NCBI GenBank assembly: GCA_020058085.1
Contig: JAGVER010000003.1
Span: 3,708-67,707, forward strand
DNA from: Candidatus Omnitrophota bacterium
GTDB taxonomy: Bacteria; Omnitrophota; Gorgyraeia; Gygaellales; Profunditerraquicolaceae
Length of the DNA stretch: 64,000 nt
Direction of reading: 5' to 3'
Both the position numbers and the translations under genes were made by a program. Positions 1,507-64,000 of this stretch are shown one piece after another (within the stretch, counting starts at the first letter, position 1; each line of letters opens with the position of its first letter). Below the pieces are notes generated by a model. That model saw only the letters and a list, made by a program, of their open reading frames with translations, made no database searches and was not told the origin of the DNA.

Positions 1507-2757
1507 ATGCTTTGGTCTAAAACATTTATACCAACTTTAAAAGAGGTTCCACAAGAGGCAGAATCAATAAGCCATCGTTTACTTTTACGTGCCGGTATGG
1601 TGCGTATGCTTATGGCCGGGGCTTATTCCTATTTGCCCTTAGGTCTGAAAGTATTATGGAAGATAGAGAATATAGTCCGTGAAGAGATGGATTCTTGTGG
1701 TGCAGCTGAAGTCTTGCTTCCGGCGTTACAGCCTTTAGAGTTCTGGCAGCGATCCGGGAGAGATAAAGATATAGGCGAAGTTATGTTTAAATTTATTGAC
1801 CGCCGCGGGCGCAAGGTTTGTTTAGGGCCCACGCACGAAGAGATTATTACTGAATTAGTTAAAAATCATATATCAAGTTATAAACAATTACCTTTAATTC
1901 TCTATCAGATCCAGACTAAATTCCGCGATGAGTTACGGCCGCGTTTTGGTTTAATCCGCGCCTGTGAATTTATTATGAAAGATGCTTACAGTTTTGATGC
2001 TGAAGATTCCGGGCTAGATAATAATTATCAGGCAATGTATGAAGCTTATCTGAGAATATTTAGAAGATGTGGTTTAGATATATTGACTCCCGAAGCTGAT
2101 TCCGGGGTGATGGGCGGTAAGGTATCACATGAGTTCATGGTTCCAGCTAAAGACGGAGAAGACCTGGTTTTAGTCTGCGAGAAATGTAAAAATGCTAAGG
2201 CTTATAATGATGAGTTAGAGAGTAGTTGTTTGAAGTGCCAAGGAAAGTTAGAGAAAGTTAGCGCTATTGAAGTCGGGCATATTTTTAAACTAGGGACTAA
2301 ATACAGCGTTTCTATGGGTGCTAATTTCTTAGATGCTAATGGGAAATTACAGCCTATAATTATGGGTTGTTATGGCATAGGTGTTTCGCGTTTAATCTCT
2401 GCGGTAATTGAAGAGAATCATGATAAAGATGGGATTATCTGGCCTAAGGAGCTTGCTCCGTACAATGTTATTATTATAGCTTTGGATACTACGGATAAGA
2501 ATATTATGGATCTGGCTTCAAAGGTATATAAAGATTTACAGGGATCTAAGATTGATCTTCTTTTTGATGATCGTGATGAACGGGCAGGGGTAAAGTTTAA
2601 AGACGCCGACCTATTAGGTATACCTTTGCAATTAATTATAGGTAAGGGCGCCCTTAAGGATGGTTCTTTAGAGCTTAAAAATCGTATTACTCAAGAAAAG
2701 ATTATCAAGCCAAGTGCAGAGATTCTTGAAGAAATAAAAAGGTGTGTTAATGGATAG
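1507..2757 (+). CDS. proS: Prolyl-tRNA synthetase, short bacterial-type form without INS editing domain
   Basis: N-terminus MLWSKTFIPTLKEVPQEAESISHRLLLRAGMVR and the block EVGHIFKLGTKYS are typical ProRS. It is only 416 aa. Confidence 0.9.
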   Translation: MLWSKTFIPTLKEVPQEAESISHRLLLRAGMVRMLMAGAYSYLPLGLKVLWKIENIVREEMDSCGAAEVLLPALQPLEFWQRSGRDKDIGEVMFKFIDRRGRKVCLGPTHEEIITELVKNHISSYKQLPLILYQIQTKFRDELRPRFGLIRACEFIMKDAYSFDAEDSGLDNNYQAMYEAYLRIFRRCGLDILTPEADSGVMGGKVSHEFMVPAKDGEDLVLVCEKCKNAKAYNDELESSCLKCQGKLEKVSAIEVGHIFKLGTKYSVSMGANFLDANGKLQPIIMGCYGIGVSRLISAVIEENHDKDGIIWPKELAPYNVIIIALDTTDKNIMDLASKVYKDLQGSKIDLLFDDRDERAGVKFKDADLLGIPLQLIIGKGALKDGSLELKNRITQEKIIKPSAEILEEIKRCVNG

Positions 2758-3262
2758 GCCAGAAGGACATGGTTTGCCTTCCTTTAGGCAAAGCCATGGC
2801 CAAAGCCATAAGGCGGTATTAACTAATGAGTTGAGACTCTTATTAAAGGATTATTTAGGGTCCTTAAATTTTGTATTTGTGGATATTATTTGCAGATATG
2901 AGGGCAGCGATCTCGTTGTGAGGGTCTTGGCGGATAGGCCTGAAGGCGGTATAAATTTAGATGAATGCGCCGGGCTTAATCGCGATATAGGTAGGTTGTT
3001 TGATGAAAAAGATATAATTCGAGAGAGGTATATCTTGGAAGTTTCATCTCCCGGTTTAGACCGGTCGCTTAAAACCAAAGATGATTTCTCGCGCCTCTTG
3101 AATAAAAAAGCTAAATTTTTCTTAAACGAGGCTATTAACGGTAAATTAGAGTGGGATGGGTTGATCAATAAAGTAGGTCAAGAGAGTGTTTTTATAATAA
3201 CCGAGAGTGGTATCCTCGAGGTGCCTTTTCTCAGGATTAACAGAGCAAAACTTATCATCTAA
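2744..3262 (+). CDS. rimP: Ribosome maturation factor RimP (start uncertain: GTG 2744 or ATG 2750; N-terminus runs through a palindromic repeat)
   Basis: VRVLADRPEGGINLDECAGLNRDIGRLFD...YILEVSSPGLDRSLK is the RimP signature. The gene sits in the conserved rimP-nusA-infB order. Confidence 0.85.
   Translation: MLMDRPEGHGLPSFRQSHGQSHKAVLTNELRLLLKDYLGSLNFVFVDIICRYEGSDLVVRVLADRPEGGINLDECAGLNRDIGRLFDEKDIIRERYILEVSSPGLDRSLKTKDDFSRLLNKKAKFFLNEAINGKLEWDGLINKVGQESVFIITESGILEVPFLRINRAKLII
2757..2812 (+). repeat. GC-rich palindromic repeat copy at the proS/rimP junction
   Basis: Hairpin CATGGTTTGCCT-TCCTTT-AGGCAAAGCCATG. The 28-mer at 2770-2797 is identical to 4882-4909 in infB. Confidence 0.85.
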
Positions 3263-3282
3263 TAAGATCGGAGAGTAAAAAA

Positions 3283-4515
3283 ATGAGCCAGGAATTATTA
3301 GCAATAATCGAACAAATTGAGAGGGAAAAAGGGATAAAGAAGGAAGTCTTAATTGAGGCAGTTGAGAGTGCCTTACTTAGCGCTGCCAAAAGAGTCATCG
3401 ATCTCAAACCTGATGAAGAACTTAAGGTAGAACTTGACCGAAATACCGGGAAGGTTCGCGCTTATAGAAACGGCGAAGAGATTACTTCTATAGATTTTGG
3501 TCGTATCGCTGCTTCAACTGCGCGACAGGTTATTATTCAGAAGATGCGCGAGGCAGAGAAGGATGTGGTTTTTAATGAGTTTCAAGGCCGGGTCGGAGAG
3601 ATCGTTAGCGGGACGGTATATAGATTTGAGAAGGGAAATGTAATTATAGACCTTTTGGGTAAAGCCGAAGGGATGCTTATTAAACGCGAACAATCCCCAA
3701 AAGAAGAATTTAAGCAAGGGCAGCGTATCCGTGCTTTTCTCTTGGATGTAAAAAAGGAGGCTAGGGGTGCTCAGATTATTTTGTCGCGTACGCATCCTAA
3801 TTTAGTAAAGAAACTTTTTGAACTTGAAGTACCCGAGATCTACGAGGGTATAGTAGAGATAAAAGCTATATCCCGTCAGCCGGGTGAACGTACAAAAATA
3901 TCAGTTTATTCCAAGAATGATAAAGTTGATTCTGTGGGTGCTTGTGTAGGGATGCGCGGGAATAGGGTGAGAAATATTGTTAATGAACTCTATGGGGAGA
4001 AGATTGATATTGTACGTTATAACGAAGATATCCGAGAGTATATTAAAAACGCGCTTTCCCCGGCTAAGGTCGCCGAGATAAAACTGGAAAAAGAAAAATT
4101 GAAAGCCGAGGTTATAGTTGATGATGATCAATTATCTCTTGCTATAGGTAAACATGGCCAGAATGTCCGGCTTGCTTCAAGGCTTATAGGTTGGGAACTC
4201 GATATTCGCACTAAGACTACTCAAGCCCAAGCATTAGTTAAGGAAAAAGAGGATAAGGATTCAGCTGAGGCTAAAGTCCAAGAAGAAGAGCTTGTTGAGA
4301 AATCCAAGAAGAAGGAGAGAAAAAAGAAGAAGTCCGAAGCCTCATTAGAAGAATTATCCGGTTTAGGGGAGAAGACTTTACTTAGTTTGAAAGAAGCCGG
4401 AATAAACTCGTTGCCAGATCTGATTAAGGCAGGAGAAGAAGGCCTGATTAAAATTAAAGGTATTGGTGAGAAGAAAGCGGCGAAGTTAATCGCTGATGCT
4501 AAGAAATTAAAATAA
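3283..4515 (+). CDS. nusA: Transcription termination/antitermination factor NusA
   Basis: N-terminus MSQELLAIIEQIEREKGI, followed by S1 and KH regions, a K/E-rich linker and a C-terminal HhH (GIGEKKAAKL). Confidence 0.95.
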   Translation: MSQELLAIIEQIEREKGIKKEVLIEAVESALLSAAKRVIDLKPDEELKVELDRNTGKVRAYRNGEEITSIDFGRIAASTARQVIIQKMREAEKDVVFNEFQGRVGEIVSGTVYRFEKGNVIIDLLGKAEGMLIKREQSPKEEFKQGQRIRAFLLDVKKEARGAQIILSRTHPNLVKKLFELEVPEIYEGIVEIKAISRQPGERTKISVYSKNDKVDSVGACVGMRGNRVRNIVNELYGEKIDIVRYNEDIREYIKNALSPAKVAEIKLEKEKLKAEVIVDDDQLSLAIGKHGQNVRLASRLIGWELDIRTKTTQAQALVKEKEDKDSAEAKVQEEELVEKSKKKERKKKKSEASLEELSGLGEKTLLSLKEAGINSLPDLIKAGEEGLIKIKGIGEKKAAKLIADAKKLK

Positions 4516-4546
4516 TTTTTACAAGAACAGGAAGAAGGTAAATATT

Positions 4547-6811
4547 ATGGTTAAGACCAAGAGTTCAAGGAAGGTAGTTAAAAAAGAACCTGCTCTTAAG
4601 GCTAAAAAGATAGTAAAGAAGGCTGTTAAGACAAGCCAACGGGCAGTGGTTTGGCATCCTCTGGCCAAAGCTACAACTAAGGTTGTCAAGCCGGTTAAGA
4701 AAGCTCTCTCTCTACCTAAATCTAAGAAAATCGTTACGCACAAAATACATACTGCGCCAGTTTCTAAGCCAACGCCTGCTATTAGGCTAGAAGGCCATGG
4801 TTTGGCCTCCTCTAGCCAAAGCCACAAGCCAGCGGGCAGTGGTTTGGCCTCCTCTAGCCAAAGCCACAAGCCAGCGGGCAGTGGTTTGCCTTCCTTTAGG
4901 CAAAGCCATAAATTAGAGCCTGTGGTTAAGCCGGAAATTAAAGTTGTTGAACCTAAGGTTGAAAATAGGCCGCATATTCAGGTTAAACCAGTGGTGAAAC
5001 CAGAGGTAAAGCCTGAAGTAAAAGCAGAGGTTGAAGTTGTTAAACCGAAAGTTGAACTTAAAGATTTAGAATTAGTACTTCCTATTACCCTTAAAGATTT
5101 GGCTATAAAGCTTCAGGAAAAGCCGTCAGTAATTATTAAGATGCTTATGGATATAAAAATAATGGCGGGGATAAATCAGACTTTAGATGAATCTATAGTA
5201 GAAAAAATTTGCGAAAAATATCATTGTAAGATTAAGAAGGCATTAGGAGAAGAAGAAATAGTTTTAAGCGCGCACGCGCTTGAGGATGAGGTAAAAGATT
5301 TAAAGCCGCGCTCATCCGTTGTTACATTCATGGGGCACGTTGACCATGGGAAAACTTCTCTTCTTGATGCCATAAGGAAAACTAAGGTTGCCGAATCCGA
5401 GCATGGCGGGATTACTCAGCATATCGGAGCTTATCGGGTAATTCTAAATCACGGAGAGATAACATTTTTGGATACTCCAGGACATGAAGCATTTACTGCT
5501 ATGCGTTCACGGGGCGCCAAGATTACTGATATAGTAGTCTTGGTTGTTGCCGCGGATGATGGTATTATGCCCCAGACTCAAGAGGCCATAGATCATGCCC
5601 GGGCAGCAGGCGTCTCTATAATCGTGGCTATAAACAAGATTGATAAAGCCGGCGCAGATGTTGATCAGGTGAAGAAGCAATTAGCTAAACTTGGCTTAAA
5701 TCCCGAGGATTGGGGTGGTAAGACCATAGTTGTCCCGGTATCAGCCAAGACAGGCGAAGGAATAGATAATCTTTTAGAGATGATTATATTAGAGTCGCAG
5801 ATGCTGGAATTAAAGGCTAATCCTAACCGGTTAGCGCGAGGAGTTGTTATTGAGGCCCAGATGTCTAAAGGGAGAGGTCCGGTAGCGACGTTTCTTGTGC
5901 AAAACGGTACTTTACATTTAAACGAAAATATCATTGTCGGTAATTTTTATGGCAAGATTCGGGCGATGTTTAATGATCATGGGCAGTCTGTAACTAGCGC
6001 TGCTCCTTCGGTCCCTGTTGAAGTTTTAGGTATTTCAGGCGTACCCGCGGCGGGAGAACAGTTTTTTGCCATTCTTCAGGAGAAAGAAGCTAAGGATTTA
6101 GCCTTTTTACGTATGGAAAAAGAAAGAGAGAATCAGGTGAAAACAGTAAAGCGTATAAGCCTGGAAGACTTGCATGCTCAGATTCAGGAAGGTAAGATAA
6201 AAGAATTAAAATTAATTATCAAGGCGGATGTTCAGGGTTCGCTTGAGGCAATCAGAGAGACCTTGAATAAGATGAATGTATCGGAGATAAAACTGGATTT
6301 TATACACTCTGGTGTAGGTAATATCAATAGCTCGGATATTATATTAGCGGTTGCTTCTAATGCTTTGATTTTAGGATTCAATGTTGATATTGACGATTTA
6401 GCTAAAGAACTTATGGCTAAAGAAGGGGTGGATGTAAAAAACTATAATATCATTTACGAATTAGCCAATGATATTAAAGCAGCAATTGAGGGTATGCTTG
6501 AGCCTAAGATTAAGAGAATTTTCTTAGGACGGGCTGAAGTTAGAAAGATGTTTAAGCTTTCCCGTTCGGGTATAGTCGCAGGATGCTTTGTTACTAAGGG
6601 TAAGTTTACCCGTAACTGTTTAGTTAATCTGGTCAGGAATGGAGCAGTAGTTTTTGAAGGTAAGCTTTCTTCGCTGAAGCGTTTCAAAGATGATGTGCGT
6701 GAAGTTGCTGAAGGTTTTGATTGCGGTATTAGCTTAGCCGGGTTCGACCAGTTGGCAGAGGGCGATATTATTGAAGCTTATACCGAAGAGAAGATAGCCA
6801 GAAGAATATGA
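4547..6811 (+). CDS. infB: Translation initiation factor IF-2
   Basis: G-domain motifs [20 protein letters not shown] and NKIDK. The repetitive, low-complexity N-terminal region carries the palindromic repeats. Confidence 0.95.
4632..4675 (+). repeat. Diverged copy of the same palindromic repeat inside infB, read in a different frame
   Basis: CAAGCCAACGGGCAGTGGTTTGGCATCCTCTGGCCAAAGCTACA compared with the unit CAAGCCAGCGGGCAGTGGTTTGGCCTCCTCTAGCCAAAGCCACA. Confidence 0.8.
4786..4911 (+). repeat. Tandem array of the palindromic repeat inside infB: two perfect 42-bp units (4798-4839, 4840-4881) plus a variant third copy
   Basis: Direct reading shows the unit TGGTTTGGCCTCCTCTAGCCAAAGCCACAAGCCAGCGGGCAG twice. 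Each unit contains the hairpin TGGTTTGGC/GCCAAAGCCA and is translated as [14 protein letters not shown]. Confidence 0.9.
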
Positions 6812-12399: not shown

Positions 12400-12600
12400 A
12401 GCGTCTGTCTTGTCTTTGCTTCATTCGGCACCGTTCGTCCCGCCCCACCGAGGCGAGACTCACTTGAAGTTTATGCTCGCTCGCCGTTAACTCTGTATTA
12501 GCGAAGGCACCTGGCCGCTCGCATAAACTAACATGCCGCCTGAACCAAAGCCAATCCATCCGCTAAAATCGACATTCGCTCAAAAATCCACCAGTGTCAT
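12400..12600 (+). repeat. Degenerate copy of the 42.7-kb inverted-repeat element, in the queA-downstream gap
   Basis: It shares the exact 20-mer GCTAAAATCGACATTCGCTC (12562-12581 = 42936-42955) and a similar right end (CCAGTGTCATTTT vs CCAGAGACATTT). It also has internal GC-rich hairpins, e.g. GTTTATGC/GCATAAAC. The boundaries are approximate. Confidence 0.5.
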
Positions 12601-42727: not shown

Positions 42728-42976
42728 TAAATGTCTCTGGCAAGCTTCTCGCTCAGGTCGATTTTGCCACATAAAGTTACTATTTAGGCAATGCCAATGA
42801 TCTTTCGTATTTCGGCGGCAAAACAACTCGCGCTTCGGCTTCTGGCCTTGGCGCTCAAACAGTTTTGCCGTGCCTGTGTTGTCTCCCGCCTATGGCGGTA
42901 TCCACAGGCATTTCCTCAGTGCTCAAGCTCCATTGGCTAAAATCGACATTCGCTCGAACCATGCCAGAGACATTTA
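42728..42976 (+). repeat. ~249-bp element with 15-bp perfect terminal inverted repeats and several internal hairpins (MITE-like or structured ncRNA)
   Basis: TAAATGTCTCTGGCA (42728-42742) is the exact reverse complement of 42962-42976. The sub-terminal arms also pair (GTCGATTTTGCC / GGCTAAAATCGAC). Internal stems include CGGCAAAAC/GTTTTGCCG, GCCTGTG/CACAGGC and CCGCC/GGCGG. Confidence 0.7.
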
Positions 42977-45371: not shown

Positions 45372-45471
45372 TTAGCGGGTGACTTGGTTTGCACCTTGCC
45401 TCAAAGGATAGGCAAGTGCGCCCTTTTGGGCGATTACGAGCAGCATGTTAAGCCAAGGCAGGACCCGCTAA
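45372..45471 (+). repeat. Structured GC-rich element A (outer stem plus two adjacent hairpins) 16 nt upstream of the helicase-nuclease start
   Basis: Outer stem TTAGCGGGT/ACCCGCTAA. Hairpin 1 is GCACCTTGCCT/AGGCAAGTGC. Hairpin 2 is CGCCC-TTTT-GGGCG. Confidence 0.7.
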
Positions 45472-50123: not shown

Positions 50124-50245
50124 CCGGCCTTATTTGCACCTTGGCATAAATGTACCTTTGCCTATTTGAAAGCAAAGTACGCTTCTTCTGAAGCGATTGC
50201 CAAGCGCCCCCTTCAGGGGGCGGCCCATTCGGGGCGAGAGGCCGG
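50124..50245 (+). repeat. Structured GC-rich element B, same architecture as element A with compensatory stem changes, in the kinase/receiver intergenic region
   Basis: Outer stem CCGGCCT/AGGCCGG. Hairpin 1 is GCACCTTGGCA/TGCCAAGCGC with two nested extra hairpins. Hairpin 2 is GCGCCCCC-TTCA-GGGGGCG. The leader TTTGCACCTTG is shared with A. Confidence 0.7.
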
Positions 50246-59421: not shown

Positions 59422-62400
59422 ATGAATAAGATAAGCAGTAATTTTGTAAAGAAATTAAGGAAGTTACATTTCGTAATAGCTTTGGCGGTGTTAGGAGGGT
59501 TTTTGTTTGCTTCAACTGCTGAAGCCGTACAGATAAAAAGGGTGCAGACCGGTGAAATTTATTTTGATGCTGACGATATTACCCAGGTGGCTGAAATTTC
59601 AGCTGTGGATCAGAGCAAAACGATTGTGCTGCTTTATCCGAAGCCGGATTTAAATACCGGAACTAATGCGCGGCAGAATATTCTCTTTTCCGCTGATTTC
59701 GGTTCCGATACCGATTTAGTGCTTACCCGTGACGGCGCCAGTTACGGAGTTACGGTGCGTTATTATTTAATCGAGTTTGCCGACGGGGTTAATGTTACCC
59801 GCGGTATCTCTTCTTTTGCCGCCGGCAGCCCGACTAACACCAAATATACTACCAAAAATATCGCGCTTTCTCCCAGCCTTACTGATTATAATAACGCGGT
59901 AGCCATTGTGCAAACCCGCTCCGCTCTTACTACTTCTACTAGTGATGAAATTGCCACCGTCAGGGCCAGTATTCCTGATAATAATACCTTAACCTTAGAC
60001 CGTTACGCGACTAATGATGTCCTCAAGAGCGTGAATATGGTTTGGCAGATAGCGGAGTTTACTAAAGATGTCACAGTCAAGCAAGGAACGGCGACGATTG
60101 CCGTGAACTCTACTTCGCAAACCGCGACAATTAATCCAGCGATAGGCACTCTGGGCAAAGCCTTGTTATTATTTAGCTGTAAAGCTAACCGCAGCGTAAA
60201 TGGTATCGAAGGGTATGAGGATATCAGAGGGGTAATTACTAATGCCACAACCCTTACTTTTACCCGCGGCTACAGCAGCTCGACTACTTTAACTGATGTG
60301 GCGATCAACTGGTTTGTTATTGAGTTAACTGACCCTTTGAGCACTGTTCAGAGCGCAGGCGCTCTTTCTGTGGCTAGCGCTGTAGAAGGCATAGGTATAA
60401 CTTTAGGTACGGCGGTAGATCCCACCCGCTCGGTGCCGATTTTTACGGTTTCCGGCCCTGCCAGCCAGAGTGGTTCCGGCTATGAAGATGAGAACAGGTT
60501 TTCTGTTGAAAGAGACTCTCCGCGTGGTGTTGTTTATGTATCGGGAACTCCGGGAGAGGTCTGGGTAGCTAATTATTATTCCAATACTGTAACCCGGTAT
60601 AATGCTTCTACCGGAGCCTTAGTGGGCAGCGTGATCACCGTAGGGACCGGGCCGATTGCCTTGTGTTATAGCGCGGTTAATCCGGCTTCAGTCTGGGTAG
60701 CTAACTATCTTTCGGATAATGTTACCAGGATAGACGCCTCTACCGGAGCAGTGATCGAGACCGTGGCATTAACTGCGGGAGCAGCGCCGCTTGGTATTGC
60801 CGCGGACGCGACCTCTTCTTCGGTGTGGACTGCTAATAGCGGGATGACTTCTAGCAGTAACGTGGTAACTAGGATTGTTGTGGATACCAGCAGTCCTTAC
60901 GCGAGTGTGGCTACTAATTATAACGGTTATGCGGGGTATCCGGTGGCTATCTGTTATGACCCGGGTTCAGGCGGCAGCAGCCCTTATATGTGGGTAGGTT
61001 ATCAGGTGAGCGATAGAATTACCAGATTTCTCTGTACCAATCCGGCAACTTCTGTTAACTATGACTTAGGGGCCACGAACAACTTCTATAACTCGATTGT
61101 TTACGCTCCTCCTGGCTTCGGAGGCTATGCTAGCCCAAGCCTCTGGATTACTTCAGCCAGAAATAACTTTATTTCACGCGCAACTTTAAATTCTTCTACA
61201 CATGCTTATTCCTCTCAAACTACGTTTGGCACCGAGCTTAATCCCAAAGGAGTTGACCTTATCGGCAGTGGAGCAAGCGGTAAAATAGCTTTTACCAATT
61301 ACGGTTCCAATACCATGAACATCATGAATCCTAATGACGGCACGACGACTGCCTATGCTACGCAGTCAAACCCCTGGGGCTTAAGTTATGATGCTACCAA
61401 CAGTAAGATCTGGGTAACTAACTCCTCCAGCGGTTCGTTTATGAAGTTTGACGCTGACGGATCAAACCCGGTGGCTTATCTGCCGAATTCTATTTTGACT
61501 AATTATTATTTTGCCCGCCTTAACGCTACCACTACCGGCGCCGATACCATTAGCTGGTTTGTCCCGGAATTTTGCCCGTTTACCTTAAATAACCCTAATG
61601 GCGCCGATACTTGGGTTATTGGCAGTAATGTGGATATTACCTGGAAATACGCTGATTCTTTAAAAACCGGCGGTGGCGGTACCGGCACTGTGCATCGCGT
61701 AAAGTTGGAGCTCTCTACTAACGGAACCAACTGGTATGAGATTCCCGGTGCCTCTAGCTTAGATATCAGCAATGGTTATGATTCGGCTGTCAGTAATGAC
61801 GGTAAGTTTACCTGGAGTAATCTTCCGGCTGCAATTACCGGGATTAATAATGATATCGGCACGACTTTAAAAGTTAAGATCTCCGATATCGAAACCGGAT
61901 ATACCGGCTTCTATGATACCTCGAATAATAATTTTAACATTAAAGGACTTCTTACCGTGGATACTCCTCCGGATACCTGGAAATTAGGCGAAACAAAAAA
62001 TATTACCTGGAGCACAAAAGGTAAATTGAATGATTCGGCATTCTCTCCGGATAATGATATGACAATTTACTTGTCTACGGATGGCGTGACTTTTAATCAT
62101 ACCTTGACTGCTGTTGCCGACCCGGGTACAGACGGCACCAGCAATAATCCCTGGAGCTGGGCGAATATTCCCTCAAGTATAGAAAGGAACGCGCCGGAGC
62201 AGGGGACATTTGATAATACTATCAGCTCGAATAACAAGATAAAGATAAAGTCTAATTATACCGCAGCCGGGACGGTAGAGAGTATTGGTAACGCGTTTGT
62301 CTTAAAAGGAACAATAAGTAATGTTAGGGTTACTAATGCCGGTGGCACTACAATGACCTCCTGCCTTCGCGGCGGCGCCTATAAAGTGAAGTGGAGTAAA

Positions 62401-64000
62401 TTAGGTCATTTTGGCGCGGGGATAACCGAGGGAACAGTGGATATTTATTATTCTCAGGATACTGGTGCCTCTTATCCCACATTGCTTAGCGCTGGAGTGA
62501 CGGCTGGGGCAGATGGTGATAATGGTTCCTGGGATTGGAATATTCCGGCTGATTTTACTCCTACTCCGGCTACTTTTATGTCGGAGGTAAAAGTAGCCCA
62601 ATCCACGGATACTTCGGTTTTTAATGACAGTAAAACTAATGCCAGTGATTTTGATATAAAGAGCGGGACCTTGATTGTCACCGCTCCCGGTAATGGAACA
62701 ACATGGAATATAGGTACATTACAGCATATCACTTGGGATTATACCGGTAACTACACTACTGTGAAGATATCTTTATCCAGAGATAATGGCGCTGATCAGT
62801 ATGATGAGGTCTTAGTTGCTTCGACTACCGCAAGTACTAAAGATTATTCCTGGCCAATAGTTATTCCTCCGTTAACCACCCAAGCTAAAATTAAAATAGA
62901 AAGTACGCAGTATCCGGATGTATTTGCCACGAGCACAGGTAATTTTATTATTGCTGGCGCGATAACCGTTACTGCTCCTTTGGTTACCGATATTTGGGAG
63001 ATTGGTACTGCGCAAAATATTACCTGGTCAACGACCGGAACTTTTTCTACGGTAAATATATATGTATCCCGCGATAGCGGAGGAAGTTGGGGGCTTCCGA
63101 TAGTCAGCGGATATAGCGCCGCGGGTACTTATCCCTGGACGGTTGCCGCGCCCGGAACTCAGGAGGCGCTGGTAGCTAAGGTTAAGGTAGAGAGCACGGA
63201 TTTTGCGCAGGAGACAATTTCCGGGACTAGCGCGCTTTTTAAAATTCGCGAAGCTATCCAAGTAACTGTTCCGAATAATACCGGAATTATCTGGCGAGTA
63301 GGAACGAGTCCAAATATTCAATGGAGTATTGCCGGTTCATTACCCGGTAATATGGTGGATATATATTATAAAAAGTTAGTCGGTGGTGCCTGGACATTGC
63401 TTGCTGGGTTCCCCGGTTCAGGTTATCAGGCGGATAACGGCGGCGGGGGAAATACTTACTCCTGGTTGATACCGAATGATATTCATGATGAAGTTTATAT
63501 TAAGGTGCAAGATCACAGCCGCGCCTATATCAATGATGTCAGCGATAACAGTTTTAAAATAAAAGGGTTAATTTCAGTTACTGAGCCGCATTTGAATGAA
63601 ATCGTTAAAGTTTCCGATACCGGCGAATCAAAAAATATCCAATGGAATCTTACCGGAAATATTACCGGCACCGCTGCGATAAGATTATCTAAAAACGGGG
63701 GTACTTCTTACGATACTCTTTTGACTTCGGGTGCTGTGAATATAACTTTAAACAATTATAACTGGACTGTGCTGGCTGCCCATTTAGGATTAGATGATAA
63801 AATAAAAGTAGCTTTGGATGGGGATGAGGATTTAGCTACCGGAACAGCGGGTGTTTCGCCCGGGTTTATTGTTAAATCACAATTAAAATTAACCTATCCT
63901 AATCAGAGCGGTATTACTAAGAACATCGGCGATACGATGACCATAACCTGGAATGCTATTCCTGATGATTTGGGCGGCGCAGGCCAGGTAAATATAAGAT
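59422..64000 (+). CDS. Giant secreted/surface protein, 5' part (>1526 codons, continues past window end): signal anchor, three related N-terminal modules, YVTN/NHL-like beta-propeller, at least 8 Ig-like ~90-aa repeats
   Basis: My own translation from ATG 59422 (MNKISSNFVKKLRKLHFVIALAVLGGFLFASTAEA...) is uninterrupted to position 64000. Propeller blades such as VWVANYYSNTVTRYNASTGALVG, VWVANYLSDNVTRIDASTGAVIE and KIWVTNSSSGSFMKFDADG are present, as is a repeated xTxPxxxxxWxxGxxxxITWxxxG...F.IKG module. The ORF is absent from the track only because it has no stop codon. Confidence 0.85.
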   Translation, partial: MNKISSNFVKKLRKLHFVIALAVLGGFLFASTAEAVQIKRVQTGEIYFDADDITQVAEISAVDQSKTIVLLYPKPDLNTGTNARQNILFSADFGSDTDLVLTRDGASYGVTVRYYLIEFADGVNVTRGISSFAAGSPTNTKYTTKNIALSPSLTDYNNAVAIVQTRSALTTSTSDEIATVRASIPDNNTLTLDRYATNDVLKSVNMVWQIAEFTKDVTVKQGTATIAVNSTSQTATINPAIGTLGKALLLFSCKANRSVNGIEGYEDIRGVITNATTLTFTRGYSSSTTLTDVAINWFVIELTDPLSTVQSAGALSVASAVEGIGITLGTAVDPTRSVPIFTVSGPASQSGSGYEDENRFSVERDSPRGVVYVSGTPGEVWVANYYSNTVTRYNASTGALVGSVITVGTGPIALCYSAVNPASVWVANYLSDNVTRIDASTGAVIETVALTAGAAPLGIAADATSSSVWTANSGMTSSSNVVTRIVVDTSSPYASVATNYNGYAGYPVAICYDPGSGGSSPYMWVGYQVSDRITRFLCTNPATSVNYDLGATNNFYNSIVYAPPGFGGYASPSLWITSARNNFISRATLNSSTHAYSSQTTFGTELNPKGVDLIGSGASGKIAFTNYGSNTMNIMNPNDGTTTAYATQSNPWGLSYDATNSKIWVTNSSSGSFMKFDADGSNPVAYLPNSILTNYYFARLNATTTGADTISWFVPEFCPFTLNNPNGADTWVIGSNVDITWKYADSLKTGGGGTGTVHRVKLELSTNGTNWYEIPGASSLDISNGYDSAVSNDGKFTWSNLPAAITGINNDIGTTLKVKISDIETGYTGFYDTSNNNFNIKGLLTVDTPPDTWKLGETKNITWSTKGKLNDSAFSPDNDMTIYLSTDGVTFNHTLTAVADPGTDGTSNNPWSWANIPSSIERNAPEQGTFDNTISSNNKIKIKSNYTAAGTVESIGNAFVLKGTISNVRVTNAGGTTMTSCLRGGAYKVKWSKLGHFGAGITEGTVDIYYSQDTGASYPTLLSAGVTAGADGDNGSWDWNIPADFTPTPATFMSEVKVAQSTDTSVFNDSKTNASDFDIKSGTLIVTAPGNGTTWNIGTLQHITWDYTGNYTTVKISLSRDNGADQYDEVLVASTTASTKDYSWPIVIPPLTTQAKIKIESTQYPDVFATSTGNFIIAGAITVTAPLVTDIWEIGTAQNITWSTTGTFSTVNIYVSRDSGGSWGLPIVSGYSAAGTYPWTVAAPGTQEALVAKVKVESTDFAQETISGTSALFKIREAIQVTVPNNTGIIWRVGTSPNIQWSIAGSLPGNMVDIYYKKLVGGAWTLLAGFPGSGYQADNGGGGNTYSWLIPNDIHDEVYIKVQDHSRAYINDVSDNSFKIKGLISVTEPHLNEIVKVSDTGESKNIQWNLTGNITGTAAIRLSKNGGTSYDTLLTSGAVNITLNNYNWTVLAAHLGLDDKIKVALDGDEDLATGTAGVSPGFIVKSQLKLTYPNQSGITKNIGDTMTITWNAIPDDLGGAGQVNIR

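Follow-up and report, generated by a model that had tools for sequence, protein, structure and literature searches.

The stretch of DNA analysed here (the window) is 64 000 nucleotides (nt) of a Candidatus Omnitrophota contig with a G+C content of ~39% and nearly all of its genes on the + strand. Close to its start lie proS (1507-2757, +), rimP (2750-3262, +; 170 residues), nusA (3283-4515, between rimP and infB) and infB (4547-6811, +), which encodes IF-2 (754 residues). The ATG of rimP at 2750 overlaps the proS stop codon within ATGGATAG. Five copies of a small, GC-rich, hairpin-forming unit, the subject of this report, are found in these genes: one at the proS/rimP junction (2754-2799, +), one isolated within infB (4631-4676, +) and three more in infB as a head-to-tail array (4782-4827, 4824-4869 and 4866-4911, all +). 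An earlier note on this DNA had reported two perfect tandem 42-bp units in infB (4798-4839 and 4840-4881), a variant third copy and a fourth, upstream copy in a different frame. The two are indeed identical, the third runs to 4911 with a different stem and the fourth is at 4631-4676, but the copy in rimP was overlooked. The hairpin described in that note, TGGTTTGGC...GCCAAAGCCA, is present with one bulged G; the unit itself, however, is 46 nt long and has two hairpins, not one. The note also dismissed a 116-residue antisense open reading frame (ORF) overlapping infB (4519-4869, -), which is most likely spurious and kept open by antisense frames of the element that have no stop codons; with four of its six frames open, the call is a reasonable one.

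Scored with a covariance model of the unit, the proS/rimP-junction copy reaches 62.8 bits, the isolated infB copy 58 bits, and the first and third array units 63.8 and 68.7 bits. Array units 1 and 2 carry one form of the second stem (variant A, GGTTTGGC...GCCAAAGCC); the left end of unit 1, TTAGGCTAGAAGGCCATGG, is a full stem 1, and unit 2 shares an ACAA with unit 1. Array unit 3 and the rimP copy carry variant B, GGTTTGCC...GGCAAAGCC, in which a compensatory exchange of G and C between the arms of variant A keeps the pair, and a 25-nt stem-loop, GGTTTGCCTTCCTTTAGGCAAAGCC, is identical in the two. As the array reads A-A-B and the rimP copy is B, the infB array is not a simple amplification of one unit. 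Tandem Repeats Finder reports the array as period 42, 2.6 copies, at 4798-4908, and the number of core-pattern matches expected by chance in the window is 0.00 (100 shuffles).

All four infB copies lie in the variable K/P/V/E-rich N-terminal region of IF-2, before the conserved IF2_N and GTPase domains as placed by the Pfam domains of orthologs, and they would supply 56 extra N-terminal residues. The isolated copy is read two bases out of phase with the other three. At the other site, the proS stop codon TAG (2755-2757) is inside the 5' ATAG of the copy, and sequence inspection shows a 12-nt partial duplicate of the unit's 3' arm, GGCCAAAGCCAT, directly after it (2800-2811, +), with the translation GQSH(K). 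Predicted RimP has an 18-residue insert between MDR and AVL, to which the 42-nt unit and the 12-nt duplicate contribute 18 codons; this copy is thus predicted to be part of the RimP reading frame and not intergenic.

The unit consists of 42 nt plus a tetranucleotide, A[CT]A[AG] (AYAR), that appears on both sides. Its consensus is A[CT]A[AG]-GCC-AGAR-GGC-N[GA]-TGGTTTGGC-TTCCNNTA-GCCAAA-G-CCA-[CT]AA, or in contiguous form A[CT]A[AG]GCCAGARGGCN[GA]TGGTTTGGCTTCCNNTAGCCAAAGCCA[CT]AA. The first hairpin has a short stem and an AGAR loop; the second has a stem of ~10 bp with one bulged G and a loop containing TCC. Neighbouring units of an array share four bases, which end one unit and begin the other, and the arrays therefore have a period of 42 nt. 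The bounds of the unit are sharp, the information content switching on at -17 and off after +28 when copies are aligned on a GGTTTG anchor, and the flanks are unrelated.

Both hairpins are borne out by covariation among 124 distinct 46-nt copies in a gap-free alignment, copies that are themselves related to one another. Under the two-hairpin model 92.4% of cells are paired, against 20-49% when the partner columns are slid. Changes on both sides occur at 11 of the 15 pairs, and there are 122 doubly changed cells compared with 15.6 ± 5.1 in shuffles (none of 500 reaches the observed value). Stem 1 lies entirely outside the pattern used for scanning; double changes number 16 at its pair 6-13 and 14 at its pair 7-12. 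Columns 2 and 16 combine as C-G 71 times and as T-A 49 times, 4 copies departing from this, and pair 24-35, where the pattern permits mismatches, is complementary in 122 of the 124. The covariation is almost purely Watson-Crick: G.U combinations are rare, and at 35 against 34 for A.C they show no asymmetry and hence no sign of folding on the sense strand only, so that this comparison favours neither RNA nor DNA. Folded one at a time, the copies reach energies that improve only modestly on those of shuffles (z from -1 to -3.8), and an Rfam scan of window positions 2600-5100 at E values up to 10 gave no match on the element.

Diverged subfamilies have rewritten their stems and kept the architecture, as in TTCGGC/GCCGAA (in ETF-alpha inserts), TGCGGC/GCCGCA and TTTCGT/ACGAAA. 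In one related stretch, L128, an IF-2 ortholog (P0076) contains at 2058-2187 three tandem 42-nt 'GTAC-type' units, translated as TTQRRVLAHPIEPG, in which the arrangement as two hairpins, the loop motifs and the bulged G are all retained; the family therefore extends beyond what the scan pattern captures. Two possible diverged relatives, both intergenic and unconfirmed, lie elsewhere in the window on the - strand. The first (50150-50191; 17.7 bits, E ~0.009) reads GCTTC-AGAA-GAAGC / GTAC-TTTGCT...AGGCAAA-G-GTAC and has the outer stem GTAC...G-GTAC in common with the L128 subfamily, and the second (45389-45434; 16.9 bits, E ~0.015) reads CGCCC-AAAA-GGGCG / CAC-TTGCCT...AGGCAA-G-GTG.

Comparison with relatives exposes sites with and without the unit. 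A syntenic close relative, L124, has no copies. Against it and two further relatives, L123 and L002, window positions 4635-4676 are an exact 42-nt insertion with ACAA on both sides, and the three relatives show a 42-nt gap there. At the main array site L124 has no copy, L123 one that is visibly decayed, L002 two and the window three. The rimP gene of the window has 54 extra nt (42 + 12) after codon 3 relative to L124, giving a RimP of 170 rather than 152 residues. L124 RimP, which starts MDR-EALV, conserves the overlap of ATG and proS stop within ATGGATAG and lacks the junction copy.

The clearest set of such comparisons comes from an ETF-alpha/FixB-like protein, in which the insertion site is between two 4Fe-4S cysteine motifs. 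This set was gathered by protein homology and not by pattern, and is therefore free of nucleotide ascertainment. Among its 120 orthologs the site is empty in 87 (...MD|KKAVIDL...), holds 14 additional residues in 26 and 28 in 4, and is partial in 3. The states are scattered on the tree, which requires at least 20 gains or losses, and only 19 of the 33 bearers have another bearer as nearest neighbour. A reading of the compensatory differences at this site as evolution in place was dropped, given the 20 or more gains or losses that the tree needs there. An AlphaFold model of an insert-bearing ETF-alpha has the insert as its least confident, unstructured stretch, although with a mean predicted local distance difference test score (pLDDT) of 55 the model is too poor to prove a surface loop.

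The empty ETF-alpha site contains ACAA or ATAA. In general, AYAR is found on both flanks of copies and singly at empty sites, and the flanking pair is often not identical (ATAG against ATAA), so that these flanks could represent a target-plus-element motif rather than a true target-site duplication. Orientation is fixed relative to AYAR, as seen in the head-to-tail arrays and in nesting in the same sense. Two ETF-alpha orthologs contain a complete unit nested in the ATAG of another unit's second loop, an arrangement confirmed in their DNA. The two insertions are independent, their inner units differ from each other and are flanked by ATAA/ATAG or GTAG/ATAG, and slippage cannot give rise to nested copies.

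An exact-pattern scan of one genome per species recovered at least 118 genomic stretches with the unit. Among the matches listed, 100 are labelled Omnitrophota or Omnitrophica, and most of the other labels are automated 'Planctomycetales' assignments on contigs carrying the same host genes. A profile search found 184 copies in 123 sources, whereas a scan of viral contigs with the core pattern gave 0 matches. The copies of many genomes are spread over several contigs, as many as 9 or more in a metagenome-assembled genome (MAG), and often lie at contig ends. Some contigs start or stop exactly inside a copy (L007, L044, L062, L066, L081 and L001), from which it follows that the unit breaks short-read assemblies and that copy numbers in MAGs are underestimates. 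At pattern-free columns, copies at different sites within a genome are more similar (0.759) than copies from different genomes (0.651; none of 500 permutations reaches this), and in one MAG, Yes70-23, many contigs carry copies that do not differ from one another, often in a terminal position. Judged by these sequences, the similarity within genomes suggests recent amplification.

The nearest matches to the window's IF-2 in a collection of 5.8 billion clustered proteins belong to Candidatus Omnitrophota MAGs, none of them exceeding 88% identity, and the source species appears to be absent from the collection. The peptide (K)PxGxGLASxSQSH is present in ~10 of the 120 best IF-2 orthologs, in one to four copies at differing positions; most close orthologs are without it, and one has the version from another frame, RKAVVWSPLAKA. 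The DNA of four peptide-bearing orthologs reveals that the nucleotide sequence, not the peptide, is the shared part. The same repeat is found in rimP in the window and in many unrelated genes and spacers in at least 69 assemblies. These results support the suggestion of the earlier note that the repeat originated at the DNA level: neither of the two outcomes that the note named as fatal to it, a repeat conserved in orthologs as peptide but not as nucleotides and a repeat confined to infB, was obtained. Exact empty sites and the copies nested in a loop show that the repeat spreads by site-specific insertion, for which slippage alone is insufficient, though slippage or unequal exchange may have produced the perfect A-A pair of the array.

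Where the copies survive bears the mark of a coding filter. With the longest ORF as gene model, 115 of the 184 copies are inside genes (95 sense, 20 antisense) and 15 more overlap gene ends; copies between co-directional genes are 9 sense and 5 antisense. Sixty copies are clearly internal, with at least 60 open codons on each side, and of these 44 use one frame (frame 0), while 10 are antisense and 6 use the second open sense frame. The target is evenly available, with 874 sense and 918 antisense AYAR in 46 kb of window coding DNA, and 403 and 407 in the two phases that give open sense frames; the bias in frame and strand is therefore not one of target availability. The favoured frame encodes KPEGSGLASDSQSH, which is the most hydrophilic of the four open readings with a grand average of hydropathy (GRAVY) of -1.26, the others scoring +0.49, +1.25 and +0.19. 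Stop codons interrupt the third sense frame, whereas four frames out of six are stop-free. Since 42 nt are 14 codons and most frames are open in this way, an insertion need not destroy a gene. Full-length coding copies are all 46 nt save two at +/-3 nt, and the three variants with one additional nt are all non-coding.

The host proteins are unrelated and include IF-2, RimP, LeuRS, ETF-alpha, RecX, an SRPBCC-like protein and an acyltransferase fusion, with the inserts at termini, linkers and loops. Antisense reading occurs in real genes, for example in the SRPBCC-like protein of eight species with the insert GMALAKGSQTTDLCPV, and the second sense frame is also read in genes (window 4631 and L003). 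Stem variants recode the peptide non-conservatively, as GLAS..SQSH, GLPS..RQSH, GSAS..SRSH, GAAS..GRSH and GFVS..NESH, and in the ETF-alpha inserts the residue pairs L/Q, S/R and A/R are those predicted from TTG/CAA, TCG/CGA and GCG/CGC. It is thus the structure that is conserved and not the peptide.

The infB array and the rimP insert are best interpreted, with a probability of roughly 0.78, as members of a family of non-autonomous DNA repeats that is mobile, or was until recently, and widespread in Candidatus Omnitrophota. New copies appear at AYAR tetranucleotides in one orientation relative to AYAR, presumably through a trans-acting enzyme that recognizes the hairpins and joins the unit next to the tetranucleotide. 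Use of the AYAR at the end of an existing copy as target yields head-to-tail arrays with a period of 42 nt, and use of the ATAG in the loop of an existing copy yields nested copies. Copies that damage a protein would then be removed by selection, and the survivors would be those in termini, linkers and loops, overwhelmingly in the frame of the hydrophilic, Gly/Ser-rich peptide.

Several observations weigh against this interpretation. The density is low: the five copies in the 64 kb occupy only two sites, which belong to the same operon. No gene for a mobilising enzyme flanked by the unit was found in ~0.9 Mb around copies, and the unit has no terminal inverted repeats. At the SRPBCC site the conservation of the copies (0.89) exceeds that of the coding DNA on either side (0.71-0.75); this could reflect a function at the level of the host, but ascertainment by the scan and recurrent re-insertion could also explain it. 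As 19 of the 46 positions are fixed by the scan pattern, the consensus and the invariance of the outer part of stem 2 are partly built in. The related data are all from MAGs, so copy numbers per genome and effects at contig ends are uncertain, and translation of the unit, like any ongoing transposition, is putative.

A more far-reaching version of mobility, which we regard as having a small chance of being right, makes the unit a codon-compatible mobile module (14 codons, stop-free, with a hydrophilic favoured frame) whose hairpins would be selected after insertion. It might then serve as a cis-acting nucleic-acid signal or as a phylum-wide generator of surface loops, and perhaps be moved by a mechanism new for bacterial repeats, namely single-strand insertion at AYAR including that in hairpin loops.

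Alternatively, the unit could be a host-beneficial cis-acting structural signal kept by selection both within and between genes, with insertion secondary or ancient. It might be a hairpin of DNA or RNA to which a protein binds, an element for processing by RNase or for mRNA stability, or a place where translation pauses at domain boundaries. The strong, almost purely Watson-Crick covariation in both stems would fit such a signal, as would the retention of the architecture in diverged subfamilies, the AGAR and TCC..T loop motifs kept across the phylum, the greater conservation of shared-site copies than of adjoining coding DNA and the sense orientation of 83% of copies within genes. We consider it improbable nevertheless. 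Presence or absence varies among close relatives with no compensating feature, the copy in L123 is visibly decaying and the single ETF-alpha site was gained or lost at least 20 times. The hosts are functionally unrelated and the copies lie in whichever loop or terminus can accept them; the remaining 17% of genic copies are antisense, and the orientation bias of intergenic copies is small (9:5). The near-absence of G.U and of strand asymmetry is unlike typical sense-strand RNA motifs, Rfam has no match, and the conservation of the loops is partly imposed by the scan pattern.

It is very improbable that the infB array arose only by local slippage or unequal recombination on a chance palindrome, or is an artefact of assembly, with no transposition. 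Two adjacent units are perfectly identical, short-read assemblers do mis-estimate tandem copy number and other MAG contigs break at copies, but slippage or artefact could explain at most the identical A-A pair. The unit also occurs in rimP at a distance of 1.9 kb, in a different frame 150 bp upstream of the array, and at more than 100 unrelated loci of other genomes. The third array unit is a different variant, the same as that of the rimP copy, nested insertions are impossible by slippage, and similar arrays are present in the independent assemblies L001, L004, L064 and L041.

The least probable explanation, a protein-level repeat in which GLASxSQSHKP... is a functional 14-residue module and the nucleotide similarity a by-product, could draw on the use of one frame in 44 of the 60 clearly internal copies and on the recurrence of the peptide in IF-2 N-termini of several species, but is ruled out by the reading of the other sense frame and of the antisense strand in real genes, by copies in non-coding DNA and by non-conservative amino-acid changes that follow base pairing (L/Q, S/R, A/R), besides which the codons for serine (AGC) and glycine (GGT) do not vary in this ~39% GC genome and most orthologs are without the peptide.

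If the unit is indeed mobile, what moves it? The most natural candidate is an enzyme acting on single-strand hairpin DNA, for example an HUH/Y1 transposase of the IS200/IS605 or RAYT (REP-associated tyrosine transposase) kind, because of the target in a loop, the covariation restricted to Watson-Crick pairs and the lack of terminal inverted repeats; we propose it tentatively and with the odds against it. Clustering of 1348 ORFs neighbouring the copies returned only host genes and their syntenic neighbours, with no recurrent transposase cluster, and the sole match in a scan for the HUH motif was a HIT-family protein. Nothing transposase-like was present among the ORFs that lie between copies in inverted pairs, and terminator and promoter scans around the element were uninformative. 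A phmmer search with Y1/RAYT probe sequences gave one real match, in L041, from an Omnitrophota MAG: a gene for a COG1943/RayT-like Y1 transposase (3779-4465) downstream of leuS, flanked by its own inverted repeats TAATTAGGGACAGACAC / GTGTCTGTCCCTAATTA. The gene and its repeats look like a separate REP/RAYT-type system. In L127, a PF01797 Y1_Tnp gene (4329-4820) with the flanks GACCGTTTCC / GGAAACGGCC lies between the ETF-alpha and HTH_17 genes and is absent from the syntenic L125, an insertion that indicates that HUH transposases are active in this lineage. Both transposases were rejected as mobilisers of the 42-nt unit, to which their flanking repeats are unrelated.

Other repeats occur in the window. 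At 4980-5032, in the N-terminal region of IF-2, there is a degenerate 12/24-nt periodicity (KPEV-type), an ordinary low-complexity linker unrelated to the hairpin unit. The G+C content rises from ~0.39 to 0.44-0.47 at 60001-64000, a part that contains a pair of 76-nt direct repeats, 71% identical (60542-60617 / 60674-60749), and probably represents a repetitive protein or a region of different origin. A further 30-nt direct repeat, TCCATCCGCTAAAATCGACATTCGCTCAAA, occurs twice some 30 kb apart with 90% identity (12555-12584 / 42929-42958).

A unit so small and clean makes the rules of its spread readable: a tetranucleotide target, quanta of 14 codons, nested and tandem growth, and a measurable frame filter. 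It accounts for antisense ORFs that are spurious, N-termini that are too long and contigs that break off in Omnitrophota MAGs, and is a potential marker for strain typing. Its insertions are natural experiments on insertion-tolerant protein loops, and the two hairpins together with AYAR provide a concrete substrate with which to seek the responsible enzyme.

Among known repeats, the Rickettsia palindromic elements (RPEs) come first to mind, and the earlier note had cited them as the precedent. RPEs are hairpin-forming elements of ~105-150 bp, in frame in unrelated housekeeping genes, whose products they extend by a translated peptide (Ogata et al. 2000, summarised in PMC10969869 and PMC3184786); they encode no transposase, and no mobilising enzyme is known for them (PMC10969869, PMC3184786). 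The resemblance is functional only: the Omnitrophota unit is an interspersed hairpin repeat in frame in unrelated genes, with a predicted extra peptide, a preferred frame and fold-tolerant positions, and is likewise without an encoded transposase. Membership of the RPE family is unsupported. At 42-46 nt the unit has one third of an RPE's length, and its hosts are Omnitrophota rather than Alphaproteobacteria, so that size and host, and not a comparison with RPE consensus sequences, set it apart. It also differs in forming head-to-tail arrays with a period of 14 codons, in having duplicated or shared AYAR flanks and in inserting into its own loop.

Repetitive extragenic palindromic (REP) sequences are the second close parallel. 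Translated intragenic REPs are most numerous in Opitutus terrae and R. conorii, where they occur as dimers of 20-30 residues argued to lie in linkers and loops; REP tags are GTAG or CGTC, and families of the CGTC type are also without a known transposase (PMC3733652). In REPINs the replicative unit is an inverted doublet (PMC3116915). Like REPs, the Omnitrophota unit is small, rich in GC and hairpin-forming, has a conserved tetranucleotide beside a stem, numbers tens of copies per genome or more and bears signs of amplification within genomes. REPs, however, are mostly extragenic, downstream of genes, whereas at least 62% of copies of the Omnitrophota unit are inside ORFs. Its tag is A[CT]A[AG], with GTAG only occasional, it has two different hairpins, and no RAYT flanked by the unit is found in the ~0.9 Mb surveyed. 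Its clusters are head-to-tail with 42-nt spacing, inverted pairs being rare and far apart.

[quoted passage not shown] The ends of the Omnitrophota unit, GCCAGA... / ...AAAGCC, are not inverted copies of each other, and for want of terminal inverted repeats it is not a MITE; it is also below the usual size of MITEs, and no parent insertion sequence with matching ends was seen. Mycobacterial interspersed repetitive units (MIRUs) are tandem units of 46-100 bp within operons, with small ORFs that overlap the stop and start codons of their neighbours, and the copy at the proS/rimP stop/start overlap resembles them in this. MIRUs are intergenic minisatellites and not dispersed in-frame inserts. The small dispersed repeats (SDRs) of cyanobacteria are hairpin-associated mobile repeats of ~21-27 nt that nest in one another and encode no transposase, but they are shorter and mainly non-coding, and neither MIRUs nor SDRs are known to have the two-hairpin design of 14 codons.

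A search of the literature on palindromic and repeat elements found no paper mentioning Omnitrophota and no prior description of the unit. The Omnitrophota family appears to be previously undescribed, although the principle, selfish DNA inside genes, is already known and no new one is involved. The unit is both RPE-like and REP-like, and differs from RPEs, REPs/REPINs and MITEs in the features that define them. In-frame 'selfish' palindromes have so far been tied mainly to Rickettsia and to scattered intragenic REPs, to which the Omnitrophota family would add an independent, phylum-wide instance.

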